From the NCBI GenBank assembly GCA_030149205.1, contig JASBSB010000001.1, positions 134,357 through 198,356 of the forward strand: 64,000 bases of DNA, read 5' to 3'. This document shows, one piece after another, positions 1-60,520 of this stretch. Every line of letters begins with the position of its first letter. Within the stretch, counting starts at the first letter, position 1. The notes below the pieces were generated by a model. That model worked only from the letters and a program-made list of their open reading frames with translations, did no database searches and had not been told where the DNA came from. This DNA comes from Candidatus Heimdallarchaeota archaeon (GTDB lineage Archaea > Asgardarchaeota > Heimdallarchaeia > Heimdallarchaeales > Kariarchaeaceae). A program made the position numbers and the translations under genes.

Positions 1-114
1 TCAATAGTAGATTCTTATCAACAAAAAGCTGCGAAATTACCACTCCCTAAAATTCTGCTCAAGTTAATCAGTTTACTGATAGAGGGAGTACAAGCTAAGA
101 TAAAGATTCTATAA
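1..114 (+). CDS. 3' end of an ORF entering from upstream of the window (unknown product)
   Basis: Frame 1 is open from base 1 to TAA at 112-114 (...KLPLPKILLKLISLLIEGVQAKIKIL*). Only 37 codons are visible and no motif is recognised. Confidence 0.2.
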   Translation, partial: SIVDSYQQKAAKLPLPKILLKLISLLIEGVQAKIKIL

Positions 115-552
115 ATTATAATTGTAAAATCATATTTGCTCTAATGTCGATTTTTGATTTTAAATTTGTTCATGAAAGGTATTGTCCATTGTAACCAGAA
201 CATCCCAATGAATTTGGGATTAAAATGAAAGAAATAGTTATTGATCGTAAAAAGAGAAGAGAAGAGTTGAAAACCAATATGGGTAGTTATCTAATTTAGT
301 GGTTTAGGTAGTTTACTTTACTAAATTAATACAATATTACAGAAGATTACAAAGATTAGATGTTTTAATTGCAAATATCATAAAAAACATTTCATCTTAG
401 TAAATTTTTTAGTTTGTACTAAAGCAGAGTATTATTTCACAAAAAACAATCTAAGTTTGTTAGAACAGAAGATAAACAACCATTTTAAGGAAAAATATAT
501 GCAAAAAGAAATTTAAGTTCGGGTTAATTCTTTTCAATGACCTAATATAATT

Positions 553-1386
553 TCAAGTGTCAAACTCTAATAAATCTATAAAGTCACACAATTTACAAAA
601 TTGACATACCTTAGATGTGAAATCTTGTTCAGGTAACTTTTTTATATTATTTAATTGTTGTGATTTTTCGTATAAATTAGAAATCTCTTGCAATAATCCC
701 CCAATCGTTTTCTGGTCAATTTTTTGAATTTGATCAAATTTTGGTTTACTATACCAAAGTTCAAGATTTATTTGCTGGTCTGGAAAAGAACTGTATAATA
801 TTTCACCATAAATTTTTATTTGATTCTCATCTTCTAGTTTTGGAGTACCCGTTTTGTATTCAATTATTCGTAATCCACCTGTTTCAGAAAATGCTACCAA
901 GTCAATCTTACCACGTATTTGAAAATTGTGGTTAATTCTATTGATAACAGTAAATTCATCTTGAATTACAAGTGATGTTATCTCATTATTATTAATTGTA
1001 ACCAAACTTTCTGCCATAAGAGCAAGATTATGAAGTTGACTTGTAATTATATCAAAACTATTTGAAAATTCTTGGCGATGGTATTTCCATGGACCTGTAT
1101 TATTCATCCATATTTTTTTTATTGAATCTAATTCAATTTCCATTGATAATAATATTGCATCCTTTATATTCTTACTTTTACGGTGATAAAAAAATTCAAC
1201 ATTACTAAAATTTCTTAGGAATACTCTCTGTAAAATTAAATGTAAAAAATTTCCCGCGTATACAAATTTGTTAGGTGTAAATGGTATTTTTATCTCCTGT
1301 TGAGCATATAATACCTGTAACATTGTTCTTCTTTTACAATTAAATTCATTTACACTTGTAACTCCTAATCTTATTGATTTATTCAT
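553..1386 (-). CDS. Cas4-like PD-(D/E)xK nuclease with predicted 4-Cys (Fe-S) cluster; last gene of the Argonaute operon
   Basis: Motif order matches the Cas4/AddB family. N-terminal Cys (SVNEFNCKRR), GNFLH, GKIDLV...RIIEYKTG (D...ExK core), QIKIY (QxxxY) and C-terminal CQFCKLC. The ATG overlaps the upstream gene's stop by 8 nt (1379-1386). Confidence 0.8.
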   Translation of the reverse strand: MNKSIRLGVTSVNEFNCKRRTMLQVLYAQQEIKIPFTPNKFVYAGNFLHLILQRVFLRNFSNVEFFYHRKSKNIKDAILLSMEIELDSIKKIWMNNTGPWKYHRQEFSNSFDIITSQLHNLALMAESLVTINNNEITSLVIQDEFTVINRINHNFQIRGKIDLVAFSETGGLRIIEYKTGTPKLEDENQIKIYGEILYSSFPDQQINLELWYSKPKFDQIQKIDQKTIGGLLQEISNLYEKSQQLNNIKKLPEQDFTSKVCQFCKLCDFIDLLEFDT

Positions 1387-3148
1387 TTAATGTCCTCCTA
1401 TTTTCCAATAAAAATTCTGAAGAATAGTGCATAGCTAATCCAAGGATAAATGGAAATTTCGGTTTTGATAAACTGTATGGGTTTATGAAGGTTTGATAAA
1501 ATACATCTTGAAGTATTTCTTGGATATCATGCAATCCTTTGATTTTTTCAATAAATAATGGTTTGGGAATACCTTCAAATAAATCATTAGGATATCCATT
1601 TGTCATAATTAATGACTTGTTATCATTAATACTAACTGATAAGCCATCAATTGCTTTAGAAGTATTTTCGATCTGTCCATAAAGGATTGAGTGTGATGAA
1701 TTAACTAAAACTAAACAAAAATTATAATGGGAAATTTTATCAATTAAAGGTAATAACTGTCTGTCTGAAATTTGAATTAAGAAGTGGTCTGAATCACTAA
1801 AATTAATCAATTTTTGTAAGAAATCATTAATTTTAACTTTTTCATCGATATTTTTGTCTCTATCATTATAAAAAATATCATGTGAAATGTTAATATTTCC
1901 CTTATTAGAACTAACACCTGATAATATCATCCATTCTCCTGCATAATATGGTGTTATATGAAGAGCGATTATATTCTGATGATACTTCATTGATACATTT
2001 TGATATAATTTTCGAGTGTATCTAAATCTAATATTCAACCAAATTAGTTTTACAATTTTTCCCCAATCATCTTCTAATATTGTTGAAAATTTAATGATTT
2101 TATTTGGAATTACAATTTTTTCTTTAGTTTTATTGTATACATATCCTGAACCCTTTATTCTATCGTCGATACATATTATAGCTGCATCTGCCTCAAATTT
2201 ATGAAGCTTGGAGACATAATAGCTTTGAATTGTAATATTTAATCCTGTAACTTCTGCAAAATATGAAATAAAATTCTGAATCTTAATGGGGGTATTATCT
2301 GTCACAGATTTATCAATTAAAAATAATATATTGCTAATAAATGGATCAAATGAAATGTTATCCTCTAAAATATCTACTAATGGAGTAGTGTTTAAAGTTT
2401 CAATAGTGTTTGAATTGATTTTTATCGACGGACTATTTATTAAATCCCCTTTCAGATTCTCAATAACAGATAATCTTACATTTCCGATTTGATTTGTATT
2501 TATTACTTTGATTATTTTAAGGAATCTTTGTTCCACTGATTCAAAATTTCGATGTAATTGTAATACTTCTTTTTCTATTACACCAGGTATTAATTTATTA
2601 GATGTTAAGTTAAATGAATTTTCAGATATTTCATGTCTGGGATCATAAAAAACCATAACCTTATCATCTCGCATCTCATGGCATTCAAACCTTTCAGCTT
2701 GAAAAATCGAATACGTGAATGTTTCATTAAACTGTTCAACAGTTTTTTCTACGATAGGATTTATTCTTTGACTAGCTACTCCTTTAGATTTTCCAATAAA
2801 TGACAGTACCTCACTGGGTCTATAATAACCTTTGTTTGAAAATGTAATATATAAGGCTGTCAATACGAATATGTCAAGATTTTGTATTTCTTTCTTTTCA
2901 TTAATCTCTGTAGTACAGATTGAAACAGGGATTGTAGCAATCTCCAAATGTGAAGGTGGTTTTTGTGCGAAAAGGTAATATGAATCCTTTACATATATAA
3001 TTGTAAATGGAACATCTGATAAAAAATCACCATTTTTTAATGCAAAGGTCAGAAAGCTAAATTCATAGTTGTACTGCATGGAAACTTTGTACATTTTTAA
3101 TACAGCTGTATCAATTTGTGCTATCCAACCAAGTATTTTGCATATCAT
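1379..3148 (-). CDS. Second, highly diverged Argonaute-like protein (MID-PIWI-like C-terminal half; N-terminal ~300 aa unassigned)
   Basis: By eye, aa ~325-592 follow the MID->PIWI motif order. YVYNKTKEKIVIPNKII is MID-like; KLIWLNIRFRY sits at the aKlGG helix position; HFLIQISDRQL at the hRDG strand position. GIPKPLFIEKI is GtprP-like and the C-terminal KPKFPFILGLAMHYS sits at the lPxPxxYA position. The ATG at 3148-3146 overlaps the pAgo TGA at 3147-3145 (ATGA). The track's GTG start at 3157 is the alternative. Confidence 0.55.
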   Translation of the reverse strand: MICKILGWIAQIDTAVLKMYKVSMQYNYEFSFLTFALKNGDFLSDVPFTIIYVKDSYYLFAQKPPSHLEIATIPVSICTTEINEKKEIQNLDIFVLTALYITFSNKGYYRPSEVLSFIGKSKGVASQRINPIVEKTVEQFNETFTYSIFQAERFECHEMRDDKVMVFYDPRHEISENSFNLTSNKLIPGVIEKEVLQLHRNFESVEQRFLKIIKVINTNQIGNVRLSVIENLKGDLINSPSIKINSNTIETLNTTPLVDILEDNISFDPFISNILFLIDKSVTDNTPIKIQNFISYFAEVTGLNITIQSYYVSKLHKFEADAAIICIDDRIKGSGYVYNKTKEKIVIPNKIIKFSTILEDDWGKIVKLIWLNIRFRYTRKLYQNVSMKYHQNIIALHITPYYAGEWMILSGVSSNKGNINISHDIFYNDRDKNIDEKVKINDFLQKLINFSDSDHFLIQISDRQLLPLIDKISHYNFCLVLVNSSHSILYGQIENTSKAIDGLSVSINDNKSLIMTNGYPNDLFEGIPKPLFIEKIKGLHDIQEILQDVFYQTFINPYSLSKPKFPFILGLAMHYSSEFLLENRRTLNE

Positions 3149-5346
3149 ATAAACCACGGCTTTTTAAAATGGAAATTCGCCATATCTTTAGGAATTTTGC
3201 CCATACCTCTACTTGATGAATGAATTGGAACTGGGAGCTTAGTTTCAATTCTATCCCATCCAGAATAACAATGGCATAAATCAAAAATCTCATAAAGAAG
3301 TTTTTCAAATCTCTCCTCATCACATTTAATATTTCTTAATACAATTGGATTTTGAGTCCCAACATTTCCTTGTGTTGAAATTAAACCAACTTCAGTCTTA
3401 GATATCCAATAAAAAGTCCCAATATGTGGCCGAAATATTCTATTTTTTTCATTCTTTGAATAAATACGAAGTGGAGACGAAGAAATTACCTCAACAATTG
3501 AATGTTTTAAATTAAGAATATTAAGGCTATGTTCAATATCTTTTAATTCTCTATCATAAAATTTTCCATTCTTTATTAAAACTACTTCATCATTATTTTT
3601 AGTGAGTAACTTAAAAGCACTTTCAAAATTTTGTTGACGATTTTCGACGTTATCAGAAATGTAGTATCCTCCACTAAATCTACCCGAATTATAATATGAA
3701 TTTAGTAACCCCCGATATTTAGTTGCATCTAGTGAGATGTTTTGAGATTGCAAACCAATATATTTTACAAAACCATTTTCATTAACATTCAGTAACCATG
3801 AATGTAGACCTAACTTTGCAATTATACCCAAAAATATATTCCGAAAATACCCATTTTGTCTTGATTCAATTTTATCCTTCAGAACATTAAAATTAATTCC
3901 CTGATGAGGATATTCATTTTTTATTAATTCACCAGATACTAATTCTTTGAATTCACTATCTACACTATCATTATCAGAATGAACCACTATGATACAATTG
4001 TTGTTATTTACAAATTTATCCATATATTCTGATAAGTCTCCCTTTTTTTCGAGAAGTTTTATTTCATCAAACTCAATTTCTGTACTAAGAAATTGTTGAA
4101 GAATGATTATTTCTTTTGTTTCTTTTAGAAATGGCTTTTTTATTAATCCTAATTGATATTCATTATACTCTCGATATAATAAAATCGATATTTTTAACTT
4201 TTCGGGACCCTTATCAAATATCCCATATTTTTGAATTTCTAATGCTGGGTAATCAGTCCTATGTGAATTACCAATAATGTAATTATTCAAATCTAATAGT
4301 CCAGAGTTACATGAGTTCCAAGATTGAAAGTTTCTAATTGGATTTAGAGTTATTGAACCCACGGTTAAATTACCTATAAAACGCATATAATTCTGTGATC
4401 GTTTAAATCTAATCGGAGGGTCAGGCCTAATTTGTTTCATCAGGGCACCTCTATCATGATAATCCAAATGTGAAAATGTTGGTAATTCTCGAATTCTTTC
4501 TAAAGGGTATGAATAATACTCATCATTATCATTTTTATAGAATGATAACGCAATAGGTGGTTCATCTTGTATAAATTCACCAAGCACGGGTGCTCTAGGA
4601 CAAATGAATTTTTGTTTGTGAAACTCAATTATATCTAAATTATCAATTATTACCTCTGAAGGTTTCTTATTTACAATTTTTTTCAATTTCACAGTCTTCC
4701 CAGTTCCAGCATATCTACAGTTTGAGAAAGGATCCTGTTTTTCTGGACATTGAATAATTGGACAAGTATCTACATAATAATTTTTCGGATTTATTTCTAT
4801 ACTAGAATATGAAAGTTTCTCTCTCAATGATACGGATGAATGAAATTTATATTTGAGATCAACTATTACTCCAACTTCACCATTTTTAAGCAAAATTGGA
4901 GCATATTGAAATCCTGGGAAAACATCAATTTTTCCAAAACCCTCGATGGTCTCAGGGCTAGAAACCTCAAATATTGAATTGTAAGTTTCTTGTATCTTCC
5001 ATAATTTATTACTATGTCGTAAATTGACAGCAATAGCATCTCCAATAATTCTTTTCAATAGATCTAAATCATCATCATTTTGGGCTGAAACTAATCTACT
5101 AGTAGGAGGAAATAAATTTACTGCCAAATCTTTTTCGAAATCATCTTCAAGTAATTCGGTTGAAATTATCTTATCTCCAAATTGAATTATAATTTTACGT
5201 CGATTATCTGGAACTTTCCTAAGATTAAGTAATACATCACCAAGTTTTCGAAAGTTTATTTCTTCTTTTTTCCTATATTCAAAGACTGTAACTTTATCTT
5301 TGAATGGTGTTTTTTCAAATTTTAAAATATTAGTTATTATTTCCAT
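3145..5346 (-). CDS. Long prokaryotic Argonaute (N-PAZ-MID-PIWI), predicted catalytically inactive
   Basis: N-terminal TNILKF; PAZ-like block DVFPGFQYAPILLKNGEVGVIVDLKYKF. The MID/PIWI junction reads YPHQGINFNVLKD...FRNIFLGIIAKLGLHSWLL. The PIWI C-terminus reads GTQNPIVL...ETKLPVPIHSS. The hRDG strand reads IKNG (nt 3565-3576), so the third catalytic Asp is Asn. Confidence 0.85.
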   Translation of the reverse strand: MEIITNILKFEKTPFKDKVTVFEYRKKEEINFRKLGDVLLNLRKVPDNRRKIIIQFGDKIISTELLEDDFEKDLAVNLFPPTSRLVSAQNDDDLDLLKRIIGDAIAVNLRHSNKLWKIQETYNSIFEVSSPETIEGFGKIDVFPGFQYAPILLKNGEVGVIVDLKYKFHSSVSLREKLSYSSIEINPKNYYVDTCPIIQCPEKQDPFSNCRYAGTGKTVKLKKIVNKKPSEVIIDNLDIIEFHKQKFICPRAPVLGEFIQDEPPIALSFYKNDNDEYYSYPLERIRELPTFSHLDYHDRGALMKQIRPDPPIRFKRSQNYMRFIGNLTVGSITLNPIRNFQSWNSCNSGLLDLNNYIIGNSHRTDYPALEIQKYGIFDKGPEKLKISILLYREYNEYQLGLIKKPFLKETKEIIILQQFLSTEIEFDEIKLLEKKGDLSEYMDKFVNNNNCIIVVHSDNDSVDSEFKELVSGELIKNEYPHQGINFNVLKDKIESRQNGYFRNIFLGIIAKLGLHSWLLNVNENGFVKYIGLQSQNISLDATKYRGLLNSYYNSGRFSGGYYISDNVENRQQNFESAFKLLTKNNDEVVLIKNGKFYDRELKDIEHSLNILNLKHSIVEVISSSPLRIYSKNEKNRIFRPHIGTFYWISKTEVGLISTQGNVGTQNPIVLRNIKCDEERFEKLLYEIFDLCHCYSGWDRIETKLPVPIHSSSRGMGKIPKDMANFHFKKPWFI

Positions 5347-5348
5347 AT

Positions 5349-6035
5349 TTATCTCTCTTTGTTTTTAAGTAACTCAAATGAACTTATCACCGCAAGGTCT
5401 GTGTTAACCGTTTTTGTTAGTATTTTCTTACAAGCTGAATGCATTATGAAAAATCCTGTACCTAACGCAGTTTTCATTAACTCGTTTTTTGCGGATTGCA
5501 ATAAAATATCATTAACTATTATTTCAGGATGAACTGATGTTGAAAAATATACTTGGATTGTAAATGAACTCGTATCATCCAAAAACAAAAAAGAATTTAT
5601 TCCATCTTTTTTCCAATTACACTTCAGTGAAAAAAGATCTTCAATTCTTGAATTAAACCCGTCTAATCTATTAAATTCTTCGCTAATTTCTTTGATAGGT
5701 AGTATAATTGAAGATTTTAACAAATAATTCCCCATAACTCTCAGGTGCCAATTAGAATTAAATTTATCTACGTCTAATACTTGTATAGTTTGATTGGATT
5801 GATACAATCCTGTATCTTCTTCATAAGAAAGCAGATTATCTTTAGTTAATTGGCTAAGTATCATTTCAACTTCTACATTTGGTATATGATCAAAATATAG
5901 ATTACTTCTCCCAGAACTCATCCAAATATGTTTCACTATATTTGATTTTTTTGCACTACCATAATCTCGCAGGAAATCAAGAATTAATTTTTTAATTGCT
6001 TTCTCCATTGAATCTTTAGGTTTCATATCAATCAC
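5349..6035 (-). CDS. Winged-helix (wHTH)-like N-terminal domain protein with uncharacterised C-terminal domain; Argonaute-operon gene 2
   Basis: The N-terminal ~75 aa (EKAIKKLILDFLRDYGSAKKSNIVKHI...ILSQLTKDNLLSYEEDTGLY) has a wHTH-like helix/wing pattern. The GTG at 6035 overlaps the upstream TGA (GTGA); an ATG at 6026 is the alternative. Only 2 nt separate its stop from the pAgo ATG. Confidence 0.5.
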   Translation of the reverse strand: MIDMKPKDSMEKAIKKLILDFLRDYGSAKKSNIVKHIWMSSGRSNLYFDHIPNVEVEMILSQLTKDNLLSYEEDTGLYQSNQTIQVLDVDKFNSNWHLRVMGNYLLKSSIILPIKEISEEFNRLDGFNSRIEDLFSLKCNWKKDGINSFLFLDDTSSFTIQVYFSTSVHPEIIVNDILLQSAKNELMKTALGTGFFIMHSACKKILTKTVNTDLAVISSFELLKNKER

Positions 6036-7072
6036 CTGACTATCTCCTTAATCTTTGACTTTAGTTCTTCAGAATTATCTACAATTACAACATTCTTAAA
6101 ATTGTAGCGTATTTCATCATAATATTGATTAGAATTGTTTAAAATAATAAAATGGGTAATATCAATAAACGAAGTAAAAGCAAAATTAATTTCATCTACC
6201 TCTTCAGAAGGTAAATGCATATCTACAATCCATAATCCAATTTTTAGGTTATTCAATTCAATGTAAATGGGAATTGTTATACTCTCATTCTGACTATTTG
6301 TAATCTTTATTTCCTTACGGATAAAAATTGGATTGAATTCTTGAATTACATTGAGGAAGCTTTGACCAATTTTCTCCTGTAAATACTTGAAATCATCACT
6401 GAAAGCCGGAATTCCAGATATTTCCTCAAAATCTTTTGCTGTGTATTTTGTTCTCATTTGAGAGCTTGATTTTGTAATTATTTGTTCTATTATATCTTGA
6501 AATATTTGTTTAGGATTACGAATTAGAATATTATATTTTGATAGCTCTTCAAGACATTTACTCTTAATATTATCGAATGGACTTGATGGATGATTGGGGG
6601 CAAAATAATTCCAAACAAATTCTATTTTTTTGAATACTTCAATTTTTTTCTGATCTGTGAATTTTCCTTTGAAAAGAGAATTTATTCTACCTTTATCAGC
6701 ATTTGAAATTTCTAAATTGTTCTGAAGGTTTTGTTGAATTTGCAGTAGTTCAGTAATTTCTGCATTCCAACCCGATTGAGTTGTAAATCGAAATTTAATT
6801 TCTTTTCCAGATAAATTTTTTTCATCTTCCTGTATGAACTTTGTTAAAATTGGTATCAAACTTGATTTATTCCAGACACTATGTTCTTTTTTCTTTACCT
6901 GTTCAAATATAAAGTACCCAGTATATTCTATGTTAATATCTTCTAATTCATCATCCTTTGATTCAAATTCAATTGATAAAATCTGATCTCCTTTAATGAA
7001 TTCAATGACTCTTAGTACTCCAACCATATTTTGGTAATTAATACCATAGTTTGTATCAATTCCACTTGGCAA
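6032..7072 (-). CDS. DUF4297 / Cap4-type dsDNA-endonuclease-like (PD-(D/E)xK fold) N-terminal domain protein; first gene of the Argonaute operon
   Basis: The N-terminus (YGINYQNMVGVLRVIEF...IEFESKDDELEDINIEY...FEQVKKK) matches the G-x-x-YQ ... E..D.D ... QxK pattern of DUF4297 nuclease domains. The C-terminal ~220 aa are unassigned. A TTG start at 7072 is needed to include the YQ motif. Confidence 0.6.
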   Translation of the reverse strand: MPSGIDTNYGINYQNMVGVLRVIEFIKGDQILSIEFESKDDELEDINIEYTGYFIFEQVKKKEHSVWNKSSLIPILTKFIQEDEKNLSGKEIKFRFTTQSGWNAEITELLQIQQNLQNNLEISNADKGRINSLFKGKFTDQKKIEVFKKIEFVWNYFAPNHPSSPFDNIKSKCLEELSKYNILIRNPKQIFQDIIEQIITKSSSQMRTKYTAKDFEEISGIPAFSDDFKYLQEKIGQSFLNVIQEFNPIFIRKEIKITNSQNESITIPIYIELNNLKIGLWIVDMHLPSEEVDEINFAFTSFIDITHFIILNNSNQYYDEIRYNFKNVVIVDNSEELKSKIKEIVR

Positions 7073-7091
7073 TATTTTAAATCTAGTTTTC

Positions 7092-7102
7092 TTTATAATA
7101 AT
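7092..7102 (-). promoter_or_regulatory. TATA-box-like element upstream of the Argonaute operon
   Basis: The minus strand reads attattataaa about 25 nt upstream of the TTG start at 7072, a spacing compatible with a leaderless or short-leader archaeal transcript. TATA-like strings are common in this AT-rich DNA. Confidence 0.3.
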
Positions 7103-7454
7103 TCAGAGATATTGTAATAATCAAAATGAAAGTTTTAAAAATTTAAATATACAATATGTGATATCAAAAAAATTTTATTGCAAAGACTTAAAATAAATGA
7201 GAACTCGAAGCTGGATAAAGACCTATAACCGTGATTTCCTTGAAATATCTCGGATATAATCAAGAAAATAAATTAGTAAATCTAAATCTTGATTGAAATA
7301 TTCTTCGTCTACTAATTATTCTTATTATATTGTTATCTTATAAGAGTTGGAAGTACACAGATATTCGACTTGCTAAGTCAGTATACAATATATATTCAAC
7401 CAGTATCTTTCAACTATGACTACCAATTCCAAAAAAAAAATGAAATTGAATGAA

Positions 7455-8597
7455 TTAATCCAGGTGTTTATTGTTTTTCTTAATATGCTGCAATGTATCT
7501 TCATTGTGAGCTGCCAAATACTCAAAAGAATTGTCATACATAGTTTGATTTAATCTATGAATAATGTCACTTTTTACGAAAATACTATATTCAACAGGAG
7601 TTTTGTTATCAATTGTAGATAAATTATTTGTTATGTATTTCATAAAATTTTCCAGATTTAACAATCCTATCGCAATTGTGGGATTAATTGGTATGTAATA
7701 TTCTAACATAACTGATACTCCATTTACTATTAACTCTGCTATAATCAATGGATTGTCTGAAGTAATTAATTCTACAGGGTGGTCTTGAGGATTTAGTCCA
7801 GATAGATTAATTATGATGATCGGCCTGAGTTCAGTATGTTTTAGTGGTTTATCAACTGTTTCATCAGGCAATTTTTGTAAAACTTCTCTGATTTTATTTT
7901 CAATTTCGATTTGACTATCTTTATGATCTAAAGATTTCTTTATTCCGATACTAATATTTTTACTTATTAAGGATATCATACCTTGTAAGTCGTTTTTTAA
8001 AAAATACCCCTGTGCTTTTTGTAAAAACACCTCGTCATATTTAATATTACTTTGATATAGAATCTCCTGTGTTTCAGTGCTAATAAAACTAAAATCCAAT
8101 ATCTTACTAAATTTCATGTAATTTCTAAATGAAGGTGTTCTAAACGTTAGATGATTAATAAAATCACATAAAATTTCGAAATTTGATTGCAAATGCATAG
8201 CATCTATGAAAGTCTCCGCAAATTTTTTTATATCTAATGATTTTTTGAATATGTTATCTCTATTACTAGGGTTGTAAATTTTTATTTTCTCAGTTTGAAA
8301 ATTTAATTTTTCTAATCCAGTAAAGAACTTAGCGACTTTATCCTCAGCTTCACTCATCAAATCGTCAATCAGTTCCTCTAAAAACCTTGGAGAATAAAAA
8401 CTTTGATTAATCTTTTTTTTGTCAATATCCCCAGTCTTTTTGTTCAACCTAAATACTCTTTTCTTTTTGTTATCTTTTTCAAAATCCTCCTCAATAACAA
8501 AATTTCGTAGAAACCACTGAGGAATATAATGTTGTTTTCTGCCTGACATGAACATAACTGTGGAATAATTGTATATTATAGTATTTGAACGAGACAT
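7455..8597 (-). CDS. DUF4238-like protein (function unknown)
   Basis: The N-terminal motif GRKQHYIPQWFLRNF matches the H-Y-[IV]-P-Q-x-[FY]-L-x-x-F signature of DUF4238. The rest is unassigned. It lies in the same low-GC block as the Argonaute operon. Confidence 0.55.
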   Translation of the reverse strand: MSRSNTIIYNYSTVMFMSGRKQHYIPQWFLRNFVIEEDFEKDNKKKRVFRLNKKTGDIDKKKINQSFYSPRFLEELIDDLMSEAEDKVAKFFTGLEKLNFQTEKIKIYNPSNRDNIFKKSLDIKKFAETFIDAMHLQSNFEILCDFINHLTFRTPSFRNYMKFSKILDFSFISTETQEILYQSNIKYDEVFLQKAQGYFLKNDLQGMISLISKNISIGIKKSLDHKDSQIEIENKIREVLQKLPDETVDKPLKHTELRPIIIINLSGLNPQDHPVELITSDNPLIIAELIVNGVSVMLEYYIPINPTIAIGLLNLENFMKYITNNLSTIDNKTPVEYSIFVKSDIIHRLNQTMYDNSFEYLAAHNEDTLQHIKKNNKHLD

Positions 8598-14536: not shown

Positions 14537-15217
14537 ATGGAAGTTGAATTTCGAATAAAATTGCTGCTCGTACTGCTCCCCTTTGGATTAACATTTCTAA
14601 ACGTACTTCCCTCTCTACATTTTCTGCTTGTATTTTCTCTCGGACTTGCTCTCGTTAGTCTAGGTTATAGAAAAGTTATTTCTCTATTGTGGTCACTCAA
14701 ATGGATTATTTTGTTGGCCTCGTTGATTTTAATCCTAATTTCCCCCAATTTTTTAACTTTAAATTTCCTTGAGAAATTTTTGATAATGATTGGATTATTG
14801 GCTTTTTTAACAACTCAACTCAACTCTAGTGAGCTTTATGACCTGATGATTAAATCAAAGTTCCCTCATACATTTGCTTGGACAGTAACTCAAATTCAGA
14901 GAAATATGGAGTTTTTTGTTGATGAATTTCAAATTCTCCTTGAGATTCATAAAAGTAATCTAGATCAGGGATTCTTGTTACAAAGAATTAAAGCCCGTGT
15001 TAAATTTTCCACGTCGCTTTTAATCCTGGCATATGTTAGAGCTATACAAAGAGCAAAAATTCTTCCAATAACCTTACGTTCAAGAGGATGGAAGGGGGCA
15101 CACGAAAATTTATTTTTAAACATCACTCCAAAGCCTACAAATTGGCTAACAGTGCTGTTGATCTTTTCTGTCGAATTAATCGCAATTATTGGTACATATA
15201 CATTCACACTTACATAA
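14537..15217 (+). CDS. ecfT: ECF transporter transmembrane (T) component, CbiQ/EcfT family
   Basis: Multi-TM protein immediately after the ATPase. It has coupling-helix Arg motifs (AYVRAIQRAKILPITLRSRGW). Confidence 0.7.
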   Translation: MEVEFRIKLLLVLLPFGLTFLNVLPSLHFLLVFSLGLALVSLGYRKVISLLWSLKWIILLASLILILISPNFLTLNFLEKFLIMIGLLAFLTTQLNSSELYDLMIKSKFPHTFAWTVTQIQRNMEFFVDEFQILLEIHKSNLDQGFLLQRIKARVKFSTSLLILAYVRAIQRAKILPITLRSRGWKGAHENLFLNITPKPTNWLTVLLIFSVELIAIIGTYTFTLT

Positions 15218-15248
15218 AATATAGATAGAAGAAGATGGAATCTAAGTT

Positions 15249-16481
15249 ATGGCTGAAGCCCTTGATCAATACGAGATTGACCTGAGAATTTATGATGGTG
15301 TGGAGGGAAACTTCCTCTGGTACCAAAATTATTTTCAAACTCAGAGGGAAGATTATTTTAACAAGGGAATTGAAGGCTCGGTAACATCTAAGGTCATATC
15401 ATATTTTTTTGGTGGAATGGAGAACTTGGTAAAGGCTGATTCTTATTTTTGGAAGGGTGATTTCAAATCAGCTGTAAATGAATATACAAAGTCTCTCCGT
15501 GAGTTTAGTCTTTTTAAATCTTCAAGAGGAGCGAGCTTTAAACTTGATCTGTTAACACTTAAAAATATTCATTGGGTTAAAGGTATGATAGCTCTAAGCA
15601 GAGCCCTTCAAATGCCAGGTGACAAAAAATCCTTTGATTACTTCTCCGAAGCCCTGTTAGAATTTAACAATGAAGTTAATCAATCCACTGAAATGAAAGA
15701 AGAAATTAGTATGCTGGTGTCATTTTCGAGAGCTTCATTAACAGAAGCATTACTCTGGCAAGCGCGTGGAAACCAGGTAGAGATTGATAACAGCGCCGAA
15801 GCAAAAAGAAGATTGATGAAGGCAAGATCCGCAGTCCGACAGGCACAATACATTAACAAGTTAGTGACTGAATTTACCGAAAGTATAGAAGAAAATCTAG
15901 ATAACTTAACTCGAAAGCGGATTTTGGTGAAAGCAGATAAACTTGCGGTCCAAGGAACCATTGCGTCAGAAAAATCCGATTATCTTTCAGCAAAACAACT
16001 CTTTATTCAATCCAATCTTTTTTATAATAGAGCTGCTCAATTAGCCGAATCTGCGGGAAATAGAAGGATATTACTTTCAATGTCTAAGGTTATGGAAGCA
16101 TCAATTTTTGAATGTGACGCCAATGAGATGTATCGAAAAAATAACAATCTCAAAGAGGCACAGCTCAAATTTGATGAGGGCTCTTTGATAATAGATAAAG
16201 CAATCGCTTTATTGGGGTCATTGGGTTCATCGGAACTTAGAGACTCGTTCACTGCCCAAAGAGATTACTATTCAGCAATGGCTCTCTATTGTAAAGCAAC
16301 ACAAAGCTTTGATGAAGAAATTTATGATGAAGCTAAGGAGTTGTACCTGACTGCAAAGGACAAATTCCTCTCAGCAATTCAATTAGGTAAGAAATCTCAG
16401 AACACCACTATTGTGGAATTAACAGGTCAAGCACTTGCAGAAGTAGAAAGTTATTTACAACTGTGTGATACATTTCTTTAG
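15249..16481 (+). CDS. Hypothetical all-alpha (TPR-like?) protein
   Basis: Long ORF with amphipathic-helix periodicity. No catalytic or binding motif recognised. Confidence 0.45.
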   Translation: MAEALDQYEIDLRIYDGVEGNFLWYQNYFQTQREDYFNKGIEGSVTSKVISYFFGGMENLVKADSYFWKGDFKSAVNEYTKSLREFSLFKSSRGASFKLDLLTLKNIHWVKGMIALSRALQMPGDKKSFDYFSEALLEFNNEVNQSTEMKEEISMLVSFSRASLTEALLWQARGNQVEIDNSAEAKRRLMKARSAVRQAQYINKLVTEFTESIEENLDNLTRKRILVKADKLAVQGTIASEKSDYLSAKQLFIQSNLFYNRAAQLAESAGNRRILLSMSKVMEASIFECDANEMYRKNNNLKEAQLKFDEGSLIIDKAIALLGSLGSSELRDSFTAQRDYYSAMALYCKATQSFDEEIYDEAKELYLTAKDKFLSAIQLGKKSQNTTIVELTGQALAEVESYLQLCDTFL

Positions 16482-35747: not shown

Positions 35748-38036
35748 TTATCCAGAAGAACCCATGATCAACGTTTGGAGTGTATCAATTAATATTTCAA
35801 ATGGGAAGGGTTCTGTCTTAACCCTGTCTCTCGTGGATTGTTCCATGTTTGCGAACATTGTCCCAATTGAATATACCTGTTGGGCTGTTCCTTCTGCATC
35901 AGGAGCTCCACTGGCACCTACTTGATCTGCACTAGAGTAAGCCAAGTCTTTGGCACTAGACCAGTTTGATATGGCTTCAGAATAATTTTTGTTAAGAGTT
36001 GCAACAGTTGCATTTAGTGCCTTTTCAATTGCTTCGATAAAGCTAATTGCACCAGTTAAGTTGCCCTTTAAGACTTTGAAAAAATCCCAGTTCACAAGAG
36101 AACCTCTAATTATTATGGGTGCTTGATTCTTTAACACTGCATCCAAGGCTACCAGAATATCTGAGAGTGCGGATTTAAAGGTATCGAGTTCCATTATGTC
36201 ATAAGCCATAATCCCCGGCTTTCCAGAACCCTTTCCTAAAGCGGAGCTCTCTATCAATACTGCAATTTTGTTAATGAAGGTGAACTGGATAAGAGCAGAC
36301 CTAAGCTGAATCTCAGCGATTAACCCCCTTAGGAGAGCATTTTTTGCAATTGGTTTTAATACGGTCTCAATTGTCTCCTGTAATGGCCCGGTGTTGTCCT
36401 TGGTACAATAGGAAATTGCATCAAAAATTAAAAAGTAAGATTTAGCCCTCATCATTAATTCTTTAACCGGGTTAGAACCAAATTCATTTTCTGCGATTGA
36501 TTGGATTTGGATTGCTTCAGTTGCTTCATTAATGGCATATAATTCTGCGACTGCCTGATCAGTGAATTCGCTTTGGTTAGGAAGTAGGAGAAATGAAACT
36601 AGAAGTAGATCAAGATGTCTGTTTATGTGAGTTAGTTGGCTGGGAGGTAACCCCTGTTTGAGAGCTTGCATCCACTGTGTTGTTAAGTGTTGAAAGGCCA
36701 CCTTAAGCCTCTCCTCCAAGGAATTGAACCGACTATTTATGAATTCCAAGTCTTTTTTACTGTTCTCTCCGTTTTCTTCATCTGCGATATGAGACACATA
36801 CGCAAATATATTATCATAAATCAAGGGAAAAGTCGATATAAACTGCAAATCTCCTTTTCCAAGCATTTCTTGTATGAGATTCTCTGAGTCTTTGATTTGT
36901 TTTTTGATACTCTTGAAATCCTTTTTCTGTATTAATTCCTCGATCCCTTTATATTTAATGTTAAGCTCGCAGATGGATTTGGAAAGGAAAAACAACTCAC
37001 GCTCTTCTTCAAGTGTATATTCAGTCCATCCATCAATGACCTCAAGTAATGCAGCTGGATCGTCCTCAGAAACGTTTATTAGGTTAAATGCCATTTGGAA
37101 GTAACTTCCAGCAGATTCTAAGTCTTTTGACGAAAGGGCATTAATTGCTAGAGTCTTGTAATGTTGAGCTAAATACGCGTTTGCAAGAAGTTCGGCACGT
37201 ACATGGTTAGCATCATAGACATCCAATATCTCTTTAGCCAAATCAGATGTAGTTTTCTCCAAGTTGTCTTTCATTGACTCCATATGGTTTAATGCATGAG
37301 ATACCATGGAATGCATTACGATTGGGTCTTGCCACCACCAACTAGTCAGACCAGAGGATAAACGTTTAAGCACGACAGTTAACAAGAAGTTGAATTGACC
37401 CATGTCATAAGTGCTTAGGAGTTGAGCTTTCTCTTCATTGAATGTTTTTGGGTCATAAATTTCACCTAAATAATTTAACCGTTTTTGGATTTGGTATAAC
37501 CTCAACAGTTCAATTAAGGAGGATAGTGCTTCTGGAGTGAACGAGGGTTGATCCTTAAAAGCTAATAATGTTAATTCATCTAACTTTAGTTTAGTATTAA
37601 CATATCCCTCTGTTTTTTTGTAAAGATTTGACTCTTTTAGAATTCCACTTCTCATCATAGTGGCATATGCATATCCCATTACATTTATATCAAACCAAAA
37701 ATCGGTAATAGATTGAATTCTTTTGAAATCTTCAGGTTTAACTTTTTCAGGAGACCTTTTCAATTCATCAATTATTCTATTGTATAATGATTCTGTTAAA
37801 TCCATTACAGATAACAGGTGTTCTACCACAGTCTGAGAAAAGTCATTCCAATCTCTTGCAATCTCACTTGTTTCATCTATATCAAGATAATTCTTGTATA
37901 ATAATTTATTTGCGTTAATCAATGATTCAAATTTCGAAAAAACAAGTCTTTCATCTAATTGAAACTTTAAATCCATCACTAGAATAATAGGATACTCTTT
38001 TTTTAATGTTTGGTAGTTTCTAATGTAATTCTGCAA
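35748..38036 (-). CDS. Large hypothetical all-alpha protein (762 aa)
   Basis: Uninterrupted ORF with helical-repeat-like composition. No recognisable motif. Confidence 0.5.
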   Translation of the reverse strand: MQNYIRNYQTLKKEYPIILVMDLKFQLDERLVFSKFESLINANKLLYKNYLDIDETSEIARDWNDFSQTVVEHLLSVMDLTESLYNRIIDELKRSPEKVKPEDFKRIQSITDFWFDINVMGYAYATMMRSGILKESNLYKKTEGYVNTKLKLDELTLLAFKDQPSFTPEALSSLIELLRLYQIQKRLNYLGEIYDPKTFNEEKAQLLSTYDMGQFNFLLTVVLKRLSSGLTSWWWQDPIVMHSMVSHALNHMESMKDNLEKTTSDLAKEILDVYDANHVRAELLANAYLAQHYKTLAINALSSKDLESAGSYFQMAFNLINVSEDDPAALLEVIDGWTEYTLEEERELFFLSKSICELNIKYKGIEELIQKKDFKSIKKQIKDSENLIQEMLGKGDLQFISTFPLIYDNIFAYVSHIADEENGENSKKDLEFINSRFNSLEERLKVAFQHLTTQWMQALKQGLPPSQLTHINRHLDLLLVSFLLLPNQSEFTDQAVAELYAINEATEAIQIQSIAENEFGSNPVKELMMRAKSYFLIFDAISYCTKDNTGPLQETIETVLKPIAKNALLRGLIAEIQLRSALIQFTFINKIAVLIESSALGKGSGKPGIMAYDIMELDTFKSALSDILVALDAVLKNQAPIIIRGSLVNWDFFKVLKGNLTGAISFIEAIEKALNATVATLNKNYSEAISNWSSAKDLAYSSADQVGASGAPDAEGTAQQVYSIGTMFANMEQSTRDRVKTEPFPFEILIDTLQTLIMGSSG

Positions 38037-38643: not shown

Positions 38644-40047
38644 ATGTCTAGGGTAATTTCTCATCTACTAAGAGATATATCCAGCTTAACAAGATACCAT
38701 CAGGATGCATCTTCAAGGTTATGCTTTCTACTTGGTGCAAGAGAAGCAATAAGATTAATGATGGCTGTTAAAGATGCAGCAGAAAATCAATTTCTTATAT
38801 TAAATGTTCCACCCAAAGAAAAAAACATGGAGAGAGTAATGGAGAAGGTCATAAAGGAAATCAAGATTCAAGGTTATGAGTTTGAATTGAGAGAAGACTT
38901 AGGCAATGTTATAAGCATAAAGACCCGAGATCGAAAACTTGAACTTGAAAGAAGAATTGAAGAGGCCGAAAACGAAGAAGAGAAGAGTGAGATCCTTAAC
39001 AGGTTTGATATTGAATATGTTAAGCAGAAGGGAATTCCCACAGCAGTTGTTCGAAGGGAAGCATCAATTGCTGCCTCATTAGGCGCCTCTATTGTCTCTG
39101 GAGATATTCTACAGGATTCAAATATTCAACCACAACAGGAAGTTGTGATTCAAAACATCTACTATGACATTGTTGCTTATGGTATAGCTGAGCTAAGCAG
39201 TGAAGAGATAAAAAGATCTCCAAGAAGAATTGCCATCAGAACACTAGAAGGAAGGTTTGACACCTTTAATGTTCATCATCAAAAAAGGTTCAGGAATGGT
39301 CTTTACTCCGTCACAACTTTACCTAGAATTTTAGGTTTAAATTTGCTCAAATTTAAAAAATCTACTCCTGCAAACGTCTTGGTTATCGCAGAGGATAAAG
39401 GTGAAATTGCAGTTGAGCTTTTTAAGAAAGTACCTGAAGAATCACAAATTGCTATCGTCATCAATAATGACGCCCACCGAAGAGATGTGGTGGAGACAAT
39501 AGAACGACTGGGATTTGAAGAAAGCAACTTTAAATTCATCATTGATGGGATCGATAGATACGCTAAAAGCAGACCAAGGCGAAAATTTACACACTTCTTT
39601 ATTGAGTTTCCTTCATCAAACACGGGTATCCGACCTAACCCCTTTGTTGATTTAGAAGAAAAGAATATCATCAGCTATGCCAGAGGACAATTTCAGGGTA
39701 TACGTGCATTATCATTGCTTGGAACAAACGAATCACAGGTTGCTTATGTTTCCCATTCGATAGATCCAAGTGAAAATGAAGATATTGTGGTTCAATCGTT
39801 CAGGCAGGGTTACTTTTCACCTTTGGTTTTAACTGATGAACTAAGAAAAACCTATCCAATAATAATGCGAGCACTTCCAGAAATTCCCACAATTTCTCAA
39901 GGAGGAACAATTGATGGTTCCAGATTAAAGCAAGAAGAAATGTTTGCCTCCTGCTGGTTAGCAGTGGATCCGGAGATCCATAAATCAGATGCAGGGTTTG
40001 TTGCTTACTTTGAATTACTCCTTAAACCGAGTGGAAGAAGAAGATGA
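38644..40047 (+). CDS. Nop2/Sun (RsmB/Trm4)-like protein with PUA-like insert, predicted catalytically dead
   Basis: Colinear with m5C RNA methyltransferase motifs but degenerate. The SAM loop reads VIAEDKGEI (canonical DxCAAPGGK). Motif IV reads IEFPSSNTG (canonical DAPCSGTG). Motif VI reads YVSHSIDPSENE (canonical YSTCSxxxEENE). Confidence 0.5.
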   Translation: MSRVISHLLRDISSLTRYHQDASSRLCFLLGAREAIRLMMAVKDAAENQFLILNVPPKEKNMERVMEKVIKEIKIQGYEFELREDLGNVISIKTRDRKLELERRIEEAENEEEKSEILNRFDIEYVKQKGIPTAVVRREASIAASLGASIVSGDILQDSNIQPQQEVVIQNIYYDIVAYGIAELSSEEIKRSPRRIAIRTLEGRFDTFNVHHQKRFRNGLYSVTTLPRILGLNLLKFKKSTPANVLVIAEDKGEIAVELFKKVPEESQIAIVINNDAHRRDVVETIERLGFEESNFKFIIDGIDRYAKSRPRRKFTHFFIEFPSSNTGIRPNPFVDLEEKNIISYARGQFQGIRALSLLGTNESQVAYVSHSIDPSENEDIVVQSFRQGYFSPLVLTDELRKTYPIIMRALPEIPTISQGGTIDGSRLKQEEMFASCWLAVDPEIHKSDAGFVAYFELLLKPSGRRR

Positions 40048-58843: not shown

Positions 58844-60520
58844 TCAACTGGGTGTTAGTATATACCTAGTAAACCAATCAAATACTGCTTCAGACGAACT
58901 AATAGGATCATCTTTGGCTTTCCATGCAAGTGTGCTTATCGTATCCTCATCATTTAGGGTAAATTCATTTGAAAACAAGGATTTTCGTGTAAATTTGTAA
59001 TCTGATTCTAATATATTCCGATTTAAAAAATTTGAAAAGCTGGATTTAGCCTTAGAAAACAATGAATCAGTACGTTCGATCTCTATTTCAGAGTGGTTAA
59101 CATCACTCATTGCCTCCAGCAATTCGATAGGTGAAGCATCAAAGCTTTTGAAACTAAACATGCCCTCTGAACTCTTGTTAATTAGCAAAGCAATTGCACG
59201 AGATAAATCTAGTTCAGTTATCCATGAAATTTTATTCTTACCAGAGCTTGGTAATGAGATCCTCTGAAGTTTCACACCTTTGCAAAATTCAAATGTAAGT
59301 TCTCTATCAAAAGCACCGAAGTAGAATCCTGGTCTTAGTATGCTTAATTTGGGATAGTAGGGTTCTTCCTTTTCACTAGGCTGATCTGAAAGGTCTGGAT
59401 CAAGAGATTCTTCAACTGTATTACTTAAATTAGGGACATTGGGTTTACCATCTAAGTTAGGGACACTGGGTTTACCATCCAAGTTGGGAACGCTCGATTT
59501 ACCATCCAAGTTGGGGACATTGGGTTTACCATCTAAGTTAGGGATACCAGGCTTATTGTCTAAATTGGGGACACTGGGTTTGCCATCTAGATTAGGGACA
59601 CTGGGTTTACCATCCAAGTTGGGGACACTCGGTTTGCCATCTAAGTTGGGGACACTCGATTTGCCATCCAAGTTGGGGACACTGGGTTTACCATCTAAGT
59701 TAGGGATACTAGGCTTATTGTCTAAATTGGGGACACTCGGTTTGCCATCTAGATTGGGGACATTGGGTTTACCATGTAAATTGGGGACACTCGGTTTGCC
59801 ATCCAAGTTGGGGACACTCGGTTTGCCATCCAAGTTGGGGACACTCGGTTTGCCATCCAAGTTGGGGACACTCGGTTTGCCATCTAGATTGGGGACATTG
59901 GGTTTGCCATCCAAGTTAGGTGAAGAAGTAGAGATTTTTATATTTTTATCAGATTCCGAAGGGTCTTCATTTGTGTTTGATTTGAATCCTGTTCCTTCGG
60001 AGGACCTTATAGAATCCATCCATTCATCGTAATTTGAAGGTGTTCCAAAGTCTGAATGAGAGAAGTAGTTTTTACATACTTCAATTGCTCCAATCAAAGA
60101 CAAATGATAAGGGTCATTCGTGTCATAATCAGAGTCGGGAGAGATAAATTTCATAGAGTTCCAACTTAAGAACATTGGAACCACGCTTATGACCTGTTTG
60201 ACCTTTTTCTCCTTTGCAATAGCCAGCAAATTGATTAACCCCTGTCTATGTAGTATCATAGAATCCATTGATGAAAGTCTTGGATTCAAGGAGAAATCAA
60301 CTTGGCCGTTTACCACAATATCATTTTCTTGAAATATATGTTTTAAGCTCTCAGGATATCTGACATCTGCAAGATGTAAATCAAACCTTTGAAATATCCC
60401 TCGTGGAGCAGACCCCTCAGAGCTGCAAAATACCAGATCCTTAATTGGCATCCGTGGAATGAGATATCTTGCAAAGATACTTCCCACCAAATAATCCACT
60501 CCAAGAATGACAACTCTCAT
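58844..60520 (-). CDS. NAD-dependent epimerase/dehydratase-like (extended SDR fold, degenerate motifs) protein interrupted by an ~18.5-copy nonapeptide repeat
   Basis: N-terminal Rossmann-like MRVVILGVDYLVGS. C-terminal block ILRPGFYFGAFD...ISWITELDLSRAI. The central array of PNLDGKPSV units spans aa ~200-365. Confidence 0.7.
   Translation of the reverse strand: MRVVILGVDYLVGSIFARYLIPRMPIKDLVFCSSEGSAPRGIFQRFDLHLADVRYPESLKHIFQENDIVVNGQVDFSLNPRLSSMDSMILHRQGLINLLAIAKEKKVKQVISVVPMFLSWNSMKFISPDSDYDTNDPYHLSLIGAIEVCKNYFSHSDFGTPSNYDEWMDSIRSSEGTGFKSNTNEDPSESDKNIKISTSSPNLDGKPNVPNLDGKPSVPNLDGKPSVPNLDGKPSVPNLDGKPSVPNLHGKPNVPNLDGKPSVPNLDNKPSIPNLDGKPSVPNLDGKSSVPNLDGKPSVPNLDGKPSVPNLDGKPSVPNLDNKPGIPNLDGKPNVPNLDGKSSVPNLDGKPSVPNLDGKPNVPNLSNTVEESLDPDLSDQPSEKEEPYYPKLSILRPGFYFGAFDRELTFEFCKGVKLQRISLPSSGKNKISWITELDLSRAIALLINKSSEGMFSFKSFDASPIELLEAMSDVNHSEIEIERTDSLFSKAKSSFSNFLNRNILESDYKFTRKSLFSNEFTLNDEDTISTLAWKAKDDPISSSEAVFDWFTRYILTPS
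59425..59920. repeat. 27-bp tandem repeat array (about 18.5 units), in-frame within the CDS 58844-60520
   Basis: Plus-strand units such as ttagggacattgggtttaccatctaag and ttggggacactcggtttgccatccaag are repeated head-to-tail. Boundaries are approximate (+/- 10 nt). Confidence 0.9.

Follow-up and report, generated by a model that had tools for sequence, protein, structure and literature searches.

The window, a 64,000-nucleotide stretch of contig JASBSB010000001.1 from Candidatus Heimdallarchaeota archaeon, carries near its beginning a cassette of five minus-strand genes, two of which appear to encode Argonaute proteins. A preliminary description of this DNA had placed five minus-strand open reading frames (ORFs) at 553 to 7072, and all five are present at those positions in a six-frame ORF list. 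In the order in which they would be read, the genes are as follows.

6032 to 7072, minus strand: gene 1, predicted effector, Cap4-like nuclease, 346 amino acids
5349 to 6035, minus strand: gene 2, winged-helix protein, 228 amino acids from GTG at 6035 or 225 from ATG at 6026
3145 to 5346, minus strand: gene 3, long Argonaute, 733 amino acids
1379 to 3148 or 3157, minus strand: gene 4, compact protein with a predicted Argonaute fold, 589 amino acids from ATG at 3148 or 592 if extended to 3157
553 to 1386, minus strand: gene 5, predicted Cas4-family nuclease, 277 amino acids

The genes are tightly packed. Direct reading of the sequence gives TAA, two nucleotides (5347 to 5348) and ATG at the junction of genes 2 and 3, an ATGA overlap (3145 to 3148) between genes 3 and 4, and an 8-nucleotide overlap (1379 to 1386) between genes 4 and 5, all as the preliminary description had given them. 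The GTGA overlap (6032 to 6035) that it had placed between genes 1 and 2 holds only if gene 2 starts with GTG. Public gene calls start this gene at an ATG 9 nucleotides downstream, which yields a protein of 225 amino acids and leaves a 5-nucleotide spacer after gene 1. The orthologue of gene 2 in a related locus (L001, from the Dive100 metagenome-assembled genome, or MAG) does start at the overlapping GTG. The start codon of gene 1 (7072) is TTG in the window and ATG at the same position in L001 (MPSGIDTNYG versus MPDGIDTNYG), and non-ATG starts are common across the related cassettes.

The same five-gene order is found in eight distinct complete loci, whose proteins share 14 to 64% identity. 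Lengths in amino acids, from gene 1 to gene 5, are listed below.

Window (L002): 346, 225, 733, 589, 277
L001 (Dive100 'archaeon' MAG): 346, 230, 733, 589, 276
L007-9: 368, 237, 745, 604, 271
L010 (Candidatus Odinarchaeota MAG, proteins annotated as hypothetical): 392, 237, 738, 612, 288
L012: 426, 236, 755, 612, 292
L014: 377, 238, 788, 671, 336
L016/17: 431, 226, 738, 637, 341
L018: 441, 216, 746, 636, 298

Seven partial contigs (L003, L004, L005, L011, L013, L015 and L019) fit this order as far as they extend. Because the order recurs in eight independent loci at 14 to 64% identity, the arrangement is far beyond what chance would produce. In the seven complete loci other than L018, no junction gap falls outside the range from -29 to +28 nucleotides, and the junction between the two Argonaute genes is a 4-nucleotide overlap in five of these seven. 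Across six orthologues, the long Argonaute is 64, 32, 30, 22, 23 and 22% identical to the protein in the window, and the compact one 50, 29, 26, 20, 24 and 22%. The identities thus range from 64 to 22% for the long Argonaute and from 50 to 20% for the compact one; the Cas4-like protein spans 64 to 23% and the winged-helix protein 53 to 14%. From these figures, the four proteins appear to diverge in parallel.

The cassette is rare in the collections that were searched. In a word-indexed search of 5.8 billion proteins, gene 3 and gene 4 each had a single homologue, the two lying on the same 8-kb MAG contig, and a scan of 185,579 species-representative genomes recovered only the Dive100 MAG. When 1.84 billion cluster representatives were searched exhaustively with a HMMER profile, 31 proteins of the gene 4 family came to light. 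Where the sources are named, one is a MAG of Odinarchaeota, an Asgard lineage, and the others are archaeal. The cassette had no match in metagenome scans or in a viral scan, and carriage by viruses therefore has no support. For an ORF upstream of the L001 cassette, a by-eye reading as a transposase fragment was dropped for want of a Pfam match.

As a single sequence, gene 4 is scarcely recognizable. It has no Pfam match, a phmmer search of the Protein Data Bank (PDB) returns a prokaryotic Argonaute (pAgo) from SPARTA at an E-value of only 0.11, and PADLOC reports a marginal PIWI signal at the C-terminus (1.2e-5). The members of its family are mostly 580 to 670 amino acids in length and match end to end, and the family analyses that follow are based on an alignment of 23 sequences. 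The profile of this family reaches the C-terminus of the PIWI domain of TtAgo (3e-4) and KmAgo (2e-3). Nine of the 23 members match PADLOC pAgo models individually, the best at 4e-19, and none matches Pfam, including the Pfam Piwi model.

The structure predicted for gene 4 by AlphaFold2, with the 23-sequence alignment as input, has a mean pLDDT (predicted local distance difference test) of 88.3 and a predicted template-modeling score of 0.88. When this model is compared with the PDB by Foldseek, the best 50 matches are all full-length Argonaute or PIWI proteins, and they include Mili, KmAgo, PliAgo, TtAgo, AaAgo, CbAgo and hAGO2. E-values reach 1.1e-23, and template-modeling scores normalized to the query are 0.57 to 0.68. 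Because the model matches full-length Argonautes throughout, gene 4 is predicted to encode a complete Argonaute fold and not MID and PIWI domains alone. The protein is about 150 amino acids shorter than long Argonautes. Its secondary-structure map comprises an N-lobe beta domain, L1, L2, a Rossmann-like MID domain and an RNase-H-like PIWI domain, and leaves no space for a PAZ domain, so the modeled architecture is apparently N-L1-L2-MID-PIWI. One of the partial contigs (L004, a Logan contig) has its compact-Argonaute gene split, at 3225 to 4996, into ORFs of 143 and 447 amino acids that overlap by 4 nucleotides. This is either a frameshift, which would make the gene a pseudogene, or an assembly error.

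Gene 3 is more readily classified. PADLOC matches it to PprPIWI at 1.2e-39 and to other pAgo models, and Pfam gives no match. The single sequence matches a solved Argonaute structure, 9iad, at 2e-5, and the family profile matches CpAgo at 3.9e-21 (residues 294 to 706), CbAgo at 1.9e-17, 9iad at 3.7e-13 and the long-B protein EcAgo at 3e-4. By these scores, gene 3 looks like a degenerate pAgo of the long-A type, nearer to CpAgo and CbAgo than to long-B proteins. At the position expected for PAZ, in the central region of the protein (window 4600 to 4764), four cysteines (C195, C200, C210 and C249) are invariant in all six orthologues. They form the pattern C-x4-C...C...C, within the motif DTCPxxxCPEKxDPFSxC ... 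ICP, and may constitute a zinc-binding insert. We know of no description of a zinc-binding insert of this kind in a pAgo.

The two Argonautes can be aligned to each other. HHalign, with alignments of 23 sequences for gene 4 and 6 for gene 3, pairs residues 344 to 583 of gene 4 with residues 476 to 720 of gene 3 at a probability of 97.6%, an E-value of 2.9e-12 and 15% identity. The same comparison with two-sequence alignments gave a probability of 0.3%, a false negative that was overturned by the deeper profiles. In gene 3, according to alignments with 9iad and CpAgo, the first catalytic aspartate is replaced by Q533, the second by N593 and the fourth tetrad residue by S712, and none of these positions is acidic in any of the six orthologues. 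The corresponding residues of gene 4 are H397, I460 and M573. Because the catalytic columns of both proteins are variable and essentially never acidic across orthologues, both are predicted to be non-slicers that lack the DEDX tetrad.

Their MID domains differ in the pocket that would hold the 5' end of a guide. In the gene 4 family, K342, K350 and R376 are present in 23 of 23 sequences and represent three of only seven invariant residues, and position 338 is tyrosine in 21 sequences and histidine in two. HHalign places K350 on the canonical glutamine (Q482 of gene 3) and R376 on the lysine of the 'KLGG' motif (K511 of gene 3). The compact Argonaute therefore looks as though it carries an intact 5'-phosphate pocket of the Y/H-K type, composed of Y/H338, K342, K350 and R376. 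In gene 3, Q482 and K511 are invariant, and K467 and S471, which align to the tyrosine and lysine of CpAgo, are not conserved. This pattern suggests that the long Argonaute has lost half of its 5'-end pocket.

The division of labor between the two proteins might nevertheless be the reverse, with the long pAgo as the sole guide-binding sensor and the compact Argonaute as a degenerate structural partner that binds no nucleic acid ends and bridges to the effector, as APAZ or N-L1-L2 proteins do. Of the two, the long pAgo is architecturally more complete and better conserved (64% versus 50% identity to the closest orthologue). Moreover, non-canonical MID pockets can function, and structures of the PliAgo type with 5'-OH and 5'-phosphate guides are among the PDB matches. 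AfAgo is reported to pair, as a heterodimer, with an N-L1-L2 protein that has a gene of its own (PMC10954474), which supplies a precedent. However, K342, K350, R376 and Y/H338 of the compact Argonaute fall at canonical positions of the 5'-phosphate pocket, which is hard to explain for a scaffold, and the tyrosine and lysine positions of the long pAgo are the ones that have not been conserved. We therefore regard the reversed roles as unlikely, and favor the compact Argonaute as the guide carrier.

Gene 5 matches Pfam PDDEXK_1 at 5e-11 (43.4 bits, with a cut-off of 22) and, in PADLOC, Cas4c at 2e-7 and Aga_Cas4-like_Nuc at 2e-4. In an alignment of seven orthologues, the invariant residues include an N-terminal cysteine, the aspartate of G-x-x-D, the lysine of K-T-G, the glutamine of a QxxxY motif and three C-terminal cysteines, and the (E/D)-x-K motif to which this K-T-G lysine belongs has E or D at its acidic position in every orthologue. 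These features indicate a PD-(D/E)xK nuclease of the Cas4/AddB type with the 1+3 cysteine pattern of an iron-sulfur (Fe-S) 'staple'. A CRISPR-associated Cas4 was rejected, since the protein scores 22.7 bits against the TIGR00372 cas4 model, below the equivalog cut-off of 65, and no cas genes are nearby. In L001, a convergent gene of 240 amino acids (7388 to 8110, minus strand) overlaps the end of gene 5 and has a sub-threshold match to DUF4145 (22.1 bits versus 23.1).

A nuclease of this family already has a known role beside a pAgo. In the APACE1 system, ACE1, a Cas4-family endonuclease for single-stranded DNA, attaches to the MID-PIWI lobe of long-A pAgos and is responsible for guide processing (PMC12094033). 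As in APACE1, the Cas4-family nuclease encoded here, with its D...(D/E)xK residues and 1+3 cysteines, adjoins a pAgo that is closest to the long-A type. APACE systems, in contrast, comprise two genes, are found in Cyanobacteria and Bacillota, and have pAgos that are active slicers (PMC12094033), whereas the pAgo of the cassette is predicted to be catalytically dead and is accompanied by a second Argonaute, a winged-helix protein and a separate effector. Membership in APACE was rejected because the DEDX tetrad is absent and there are five genes, not two.

Gene 2 has no match in Pfam or PADLOC. Its predicted structure has two domains, namely an N-terminal winged helix (approximately amino acids 3 to 77), in which the order alpha1-beta1-alpha2-alpha3-beta2-beta3 of that fold is present, and a C-terminal alpha/beta domain. 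Foldseek matches to the latter are weak and inconsistent (AdoMetDC, KA1 and TBP-like proteins). The protein is presumed to be an adaptor or a regulator.

Gene 1 encodes an N-terminal PD-(D/E)xK nuclease domain of the Cap4/DUF4297 type (amino acids 3 to 202) followed by a C-terminal domain of about 130 amino acids. The nuclease domain matches Pfam Cap4_nuclease (PF14130) over model positions 2 to 200 of 200, at 9.7e-10 and 39.4 bits (cut-off 26.2); PADLOC adds weak matches to LmuA and HamA. The residues D45...E57-Q-x-K60 are kept in Cap4-type orthologues. The C-terminal domain has no Pfam match.

The first gene is not of the same type in every locus. Among the eight complete loci, it is Cap4-like in three, a metallophosphoesterase in three, caspase-like in one and without assignment in one. 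The Cap4-like examples are those of the window, L001 and L007; the L007 protein scores 24.7 bits against Cap4_nuclease, just below the cut-off, but is 26% identical over its full length (BLASTP, 2e-38). The caspase-like protein, in the Odinarchaeota locus L010, matches Peptidase_C14 at 1.1e-15, and its GH and DAC motifs can be seen in the alignment. Metallophos proteins are found in L012 (1e-17), L016 (4e-15) and L018, and the first gene of L014 has no Pfam match. The first gene is thus swappable and is predicted to encode an effector, and the remaining four genes form a constant core. Exchange of effectors at a fixed position, with catalytic motifs kept, is a hallmark of defence systems. About 120 residues at the C-terminal end of the caspase-type protein also match a profile of the Cap4-type C-terminal domain (hmmsearch conditional E-value 6.8e-7; BLASTP 6e-4). 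This suggests that the region common to nuclease-type and caspase-type effectors is a shared docking module.

Cap4/DUF4297 effectors with the nuclease domain of gene 1 occur in CBASS, Lamassu (LmuA) and HerA-DUF4297 systems, and Lamassu and CBASS likewise exchange enzyme types in the effector slot. Unlike those systems, the cassette lacks a SAVED domain as well as any HerA or SMC partner, and the C-terminal domain of gene 1 is common instead to the caspase-like effector of a related Argonaute locus. Membership in CBASS as a Cap4 protein was rejected, since Pfam and PADLOC show no SAVED or CD-NTase match in the five proteins.

Most assignments made in the preliminary description are borne out by these data. 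The DUF4297/Cap4-like nuclease rests on a Pfam match above the cut-off, the winged helix-turn-helix protein on predicted structure, the long pAgo on its PADLOC score and its profile match to CpAgo, and the Cas4-like nuclease with four cysteines on the PDDEXK_1 score and the 1+3 pattern. The mapping of catalytic residues agrees, for both proteins, with the earlier suggestion of impaired Argonautes. For gene 4, previously called a second MID-PIWI-like protein, the family profile, HHalign and the structural model all recovered PIWI or MID, but the whole Argonaute fold replaces the restriction to those two domains. Similarly, the bracketing of the Argonautes by two PD-(D/E)xK nucleases is true of the locus in the window but not of the system, as the type of gene 1 varies.

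The constancy of genes 2 to 5 also bears on whether the cassette is one system or two. Genes 1 and 2 could be a toxin and regulator, or a sensor and effector, and genes 3 to 5 a separate APACE-like module that travels along with them. The junction of genes 2 and 3 is a short spacer in several loci (+2, +5, +1 and +25 nucleotides), the winged-helix domain could belong to a transcriptional regulator, and pAgo and Cas4-family pairs of the APACE type need no extra effectors. Yet the two halves occur together, and in an unchanged order, in all eight complete loci, even at 14 to 22% identity, and no locus was found in which the two Argonaute genes and the Cas4-like gene stand beside a different upstream neighbor. 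With both Argonautes predicted to be dead, genes 3 to 5 would be left with no target-directed output except the Cas4-like nuclease, and the winged-helix protein is of one kind in every locus although the enzyme presumed to be its partner changes. Two adjacent systems are accordingly improbable, and a single five-gene system is preferred.

The surroundings of the cassette were also considered. Two further features lie immediately upstream of it in the window.

7073 to 7454, minus strand: AT-rich intergenic region of 382 nucleotides, directly upstream of gene 1, that presumably holds the promoter of the operon
7455 to 8597, minus strand: DUF4238 gene, 380 amino acids (Pfam, 6e-15), directly upstream of the cassette

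From the DUF4238 gene to gene 1, the minus strand has no sizeable non-coding gap other than 7073 to 7454, and the role of this region as a promoter is inferred from this layout. A scan for bacterial-type (sigma-70) promoters found no enrichment, although that model is irrelevant to an archaeal host. Because the DUF4238 gene does not adjoin the cassette in any other locus found, it is probably an independent island gene. GC content is 26 to 30% over the cassette and the DUF4238 gene (window 1 to 8500) and 33 to 37% beyond about 8.5 kb, and the low-GC stretch is consistent with horizontal acquisition and also counts toward the immune reading proposed below. The L007 version of the cassette has 47% GC. 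The remainder of the window is ordinary archaeal chromosome, with genes for TBP, TFE-alpha, a RadA-like protein, a class-I LysRS and a thermosome subunit. Repeats, CRISPR-like ones included, are absent from both flanking intergenic regions that were searched.

Other features of the window are recorded here for completeness. Downstream of gene 5, about 940 nucleotides have no called gene (window 1 to 552, and on to 14795 to 15735 in the coordinates of L002), and no direct or inverted repeats of at least 14 nucleotides occur in this stretch. An Rfam search of the window, including positions 1 to 552, gave no matches. Three large ORFs have no Pfam match at E-values of 1e-5 or below: 35748 to 38036 (minus strand, 762 amino acids), 38644 to 40047 (plus strand, 467 amino acids) and 58844 to 60520 (minus strand, 558 amino acids). 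The housekeeping proteins of this genome that were looked up are singletons at 90% clustering, which points to a poorly sampled archaeal lineage.

Mobility raises the question of whether the cassette serves immunity at all. It might instead be a guide-directed DNA-processing module for a mobile element, for DNA repair or for replication, a role that has been suggested for certain pAgos. Its patchy distribution and the low-GC stretch are consistent with mobility, Asgard Argonautes of the HrAgo2 type adjoin transposition and replication genes (PMC11217426), and Cas4-family and RecB-like nucleases also serve in repair. However, the conserved neighbors of the cassette include no genes for a transposase, an integrase or replication, and an effector position that can hold a nuclease, a caspase-like protease or a phosphoesterase is what abortive-infection systems typically show and is hard to square with repair. 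Furthermore, the neighbors in related loci include defence genes, namely restriction-modification genes of the MmeI/Eco57I type in L007, BREX PglZ and a TIR_2 protein in L014, and a SLFN_AlbA_2 (Schlafen/AlbA_2) protein in L016. A non-immune function is thus very improbable. Each of the three alternatives is less consistent with the pattern of conservation than is an immune system.

We therefore propose, with a probability of roughly 0.6, that the cassette encodes an immune system of five components, built around Argonautes and belonging to uncultured archaea, in which an Argonaute heterodimer is the sensor, the Cas4-like protein processes guides, and a modular effector causes abortive infection or interference. 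We infer both the immune function and a fixed stoichiometry of the five proteins. The two Argonautes would be made in step, through the ATGA overlap present here and in most loci, and would form the heterodimer. The compact Argonaute would hold a 5'-phosphorylated guide, and the long Argonaute, with its putative zinc-binding Cys4 insert, might aid binding of the guide/target duplex or relay a conformational signal. The Cas4-family nuclease could produce guides by trimming single strands of the invader, in the way that ACE1 serves long-A pAgos. Upon target recognition, the complex would activate the variable effector, probably through the winged-helix protein with its alpha/beta domain and the C-terminal docking domain of the effector. 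The effector, which here would be a Cap4-type DNA endonuclease and elsewhere a caspase-like protease or a metallophosphoesterase, would then destroy macromolecules of the invader, the host or both, resulting in interference or abortive infection.

Several points weigh against this proposal. The case for physical interaction of the Argonautes consists only of gene overlap and co-conservation. Residues Y338 and K342 of gene 4, which lie upstream of residue 344, were mapped to the pocket by spacing and predicted secondary structure only. The C-terminal module was not detected in the Metallophos effectors or in that of L014, where scores are within the range of shuffled sequences, and the docking idea is thus only partly supported. 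Finally, the locus in the window is surrounded by housekeeping genes and not by an obvious defence island. More tentatively, at somewhat less than even odds, the cassettes may define a 'twin-Ago' class in which two inactive Argonautes form an obligate heterodimer, with the compact protein as guide carrier, the zinc-bearing long protein as transducer, a winged-helix adaptor, interchangeable effectors and a Cas4-family guide maker.

Among known Argonaute systems, the long-B systems BPAN, BPAS and BPAM resemble the cassette in that full-length inactive pAgos act through co-encoded effectors, such as nucleases, whose types are interchangeable (PMC13535254). These systems have two genes and one Argonaute, in contrast to the two Argonautes, winged-helix protein and Cas4-like protein found here. 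Membership in BPAN or another long-B group was rejected on the profile matches of gene 3 (CpAgo at 3.9e-21 versus EcAgo at 3e-4) and because there are four partner genes, not one.

In short pAgo systems (SPARTA, SPARSA, SPARDA and SPARHA) and AfAgo, as is proposed for the cassette, an inactive Argonaute that lacks PAZ takes part in an obligate hetero-complex. Other features that the cassette is predicted to have in common with them are a MID pocket of the Y/H-K type, modular effectors and activation of the effector when the target is bound. Their partner protein, however, is of the APAZ or N-L1-L2 kind and completes one bilobed Argonaute unit, whereas gene 4 is predicted to have N-L1-L2-MID-PIWI in a single chain, and its partner gene appears to encode a second complete Argonaute. 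A SPARTA-like assignment was rejected because the gene 4 model can be aligned to long Argonautes from end to end, N-terminal lobe included. In addition, PADLOC and Pfam models for APAZ, TIR, SIR2, DREN and HNH have no match in the five proteins. To our knowledge, characterized Argonaute systems have a single Argonaute-fold unit per functional protomer, either as one chain or as a short Argonaute with its APAZ or N-L1-L2 partner.

The SiAgo-Aga1-Aga2 system of Sulfolobus islandicus is likewise archaeal and multi-component, with accessory proteins and an abortive-infection output, but it consists of one short Argonaute and a membrane effector, Aga2, together with Aga1 (PMC11788926). Membership in this group was rejected, as PADLOC reports no match of the Aga1 or Aga2 type in the five proteins.

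PADLOC recognizes individual parts of the cassette only, and no whole system. The literature searched comprised Makarova 2009, Ryazansky 2018, papers on Asgard Argonautes and Asgard defence, a 2026 survey of archaeal immunity, the ACE1 paper and the long-B paper. Cas4-like neighbors are described there for single pAgos, as are genomes that encode two or more pAgos. None of these works reports two Argonaute genes conserved in tandem together with a swappable effector, a winged-helix protein and a Cas4-family nuclease, although most papers in subscription journals were outside the search and an earlier description is possible. The preliminary description had been unaware of any described system with the five-gene combination, and nothing in these sources or in PADLOC contradicts it. 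It had also named four outcomes that would undo its reading, namely a lack of PIWI or MID domains, a lack of nuclease folds, an architecture already catalogued, and genes that are not co-conserved in related genomes. Each was looked for and none was found; on the last point, the gene order recurs in the eight complete loci.

We rate the cassette as a probable extension of pAgo-plus-effector immunity with an unusually distinctive architecture. If the 'twin-Ago' arrangement is real, two Argonautes would be seen for the first time in nature to cooperate in one complex, and the cassette would offer a test case for the relay of target recognition between Argonaute subunits. Caspase-like and metallophosphoesterase outputs would be added to pAgo signaling, and a compact, putatively guide-binding Argonaute of 589 amino acids, combined with programmable activation of a nuclease or protease, could interest tool developers. 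The pairing of two complete and highly divergent Argonaute folds, kept down to about 20% identity and accompanied by a constant nuclease that may process guides and by an exchangeable effector slot, would widen the design space of guide-directed immunity, and the presence of a locus in an Asgard archaeon (Odinarchaeota) could bear on the origin of multi-component Argonaute machineries before eukaryotes.

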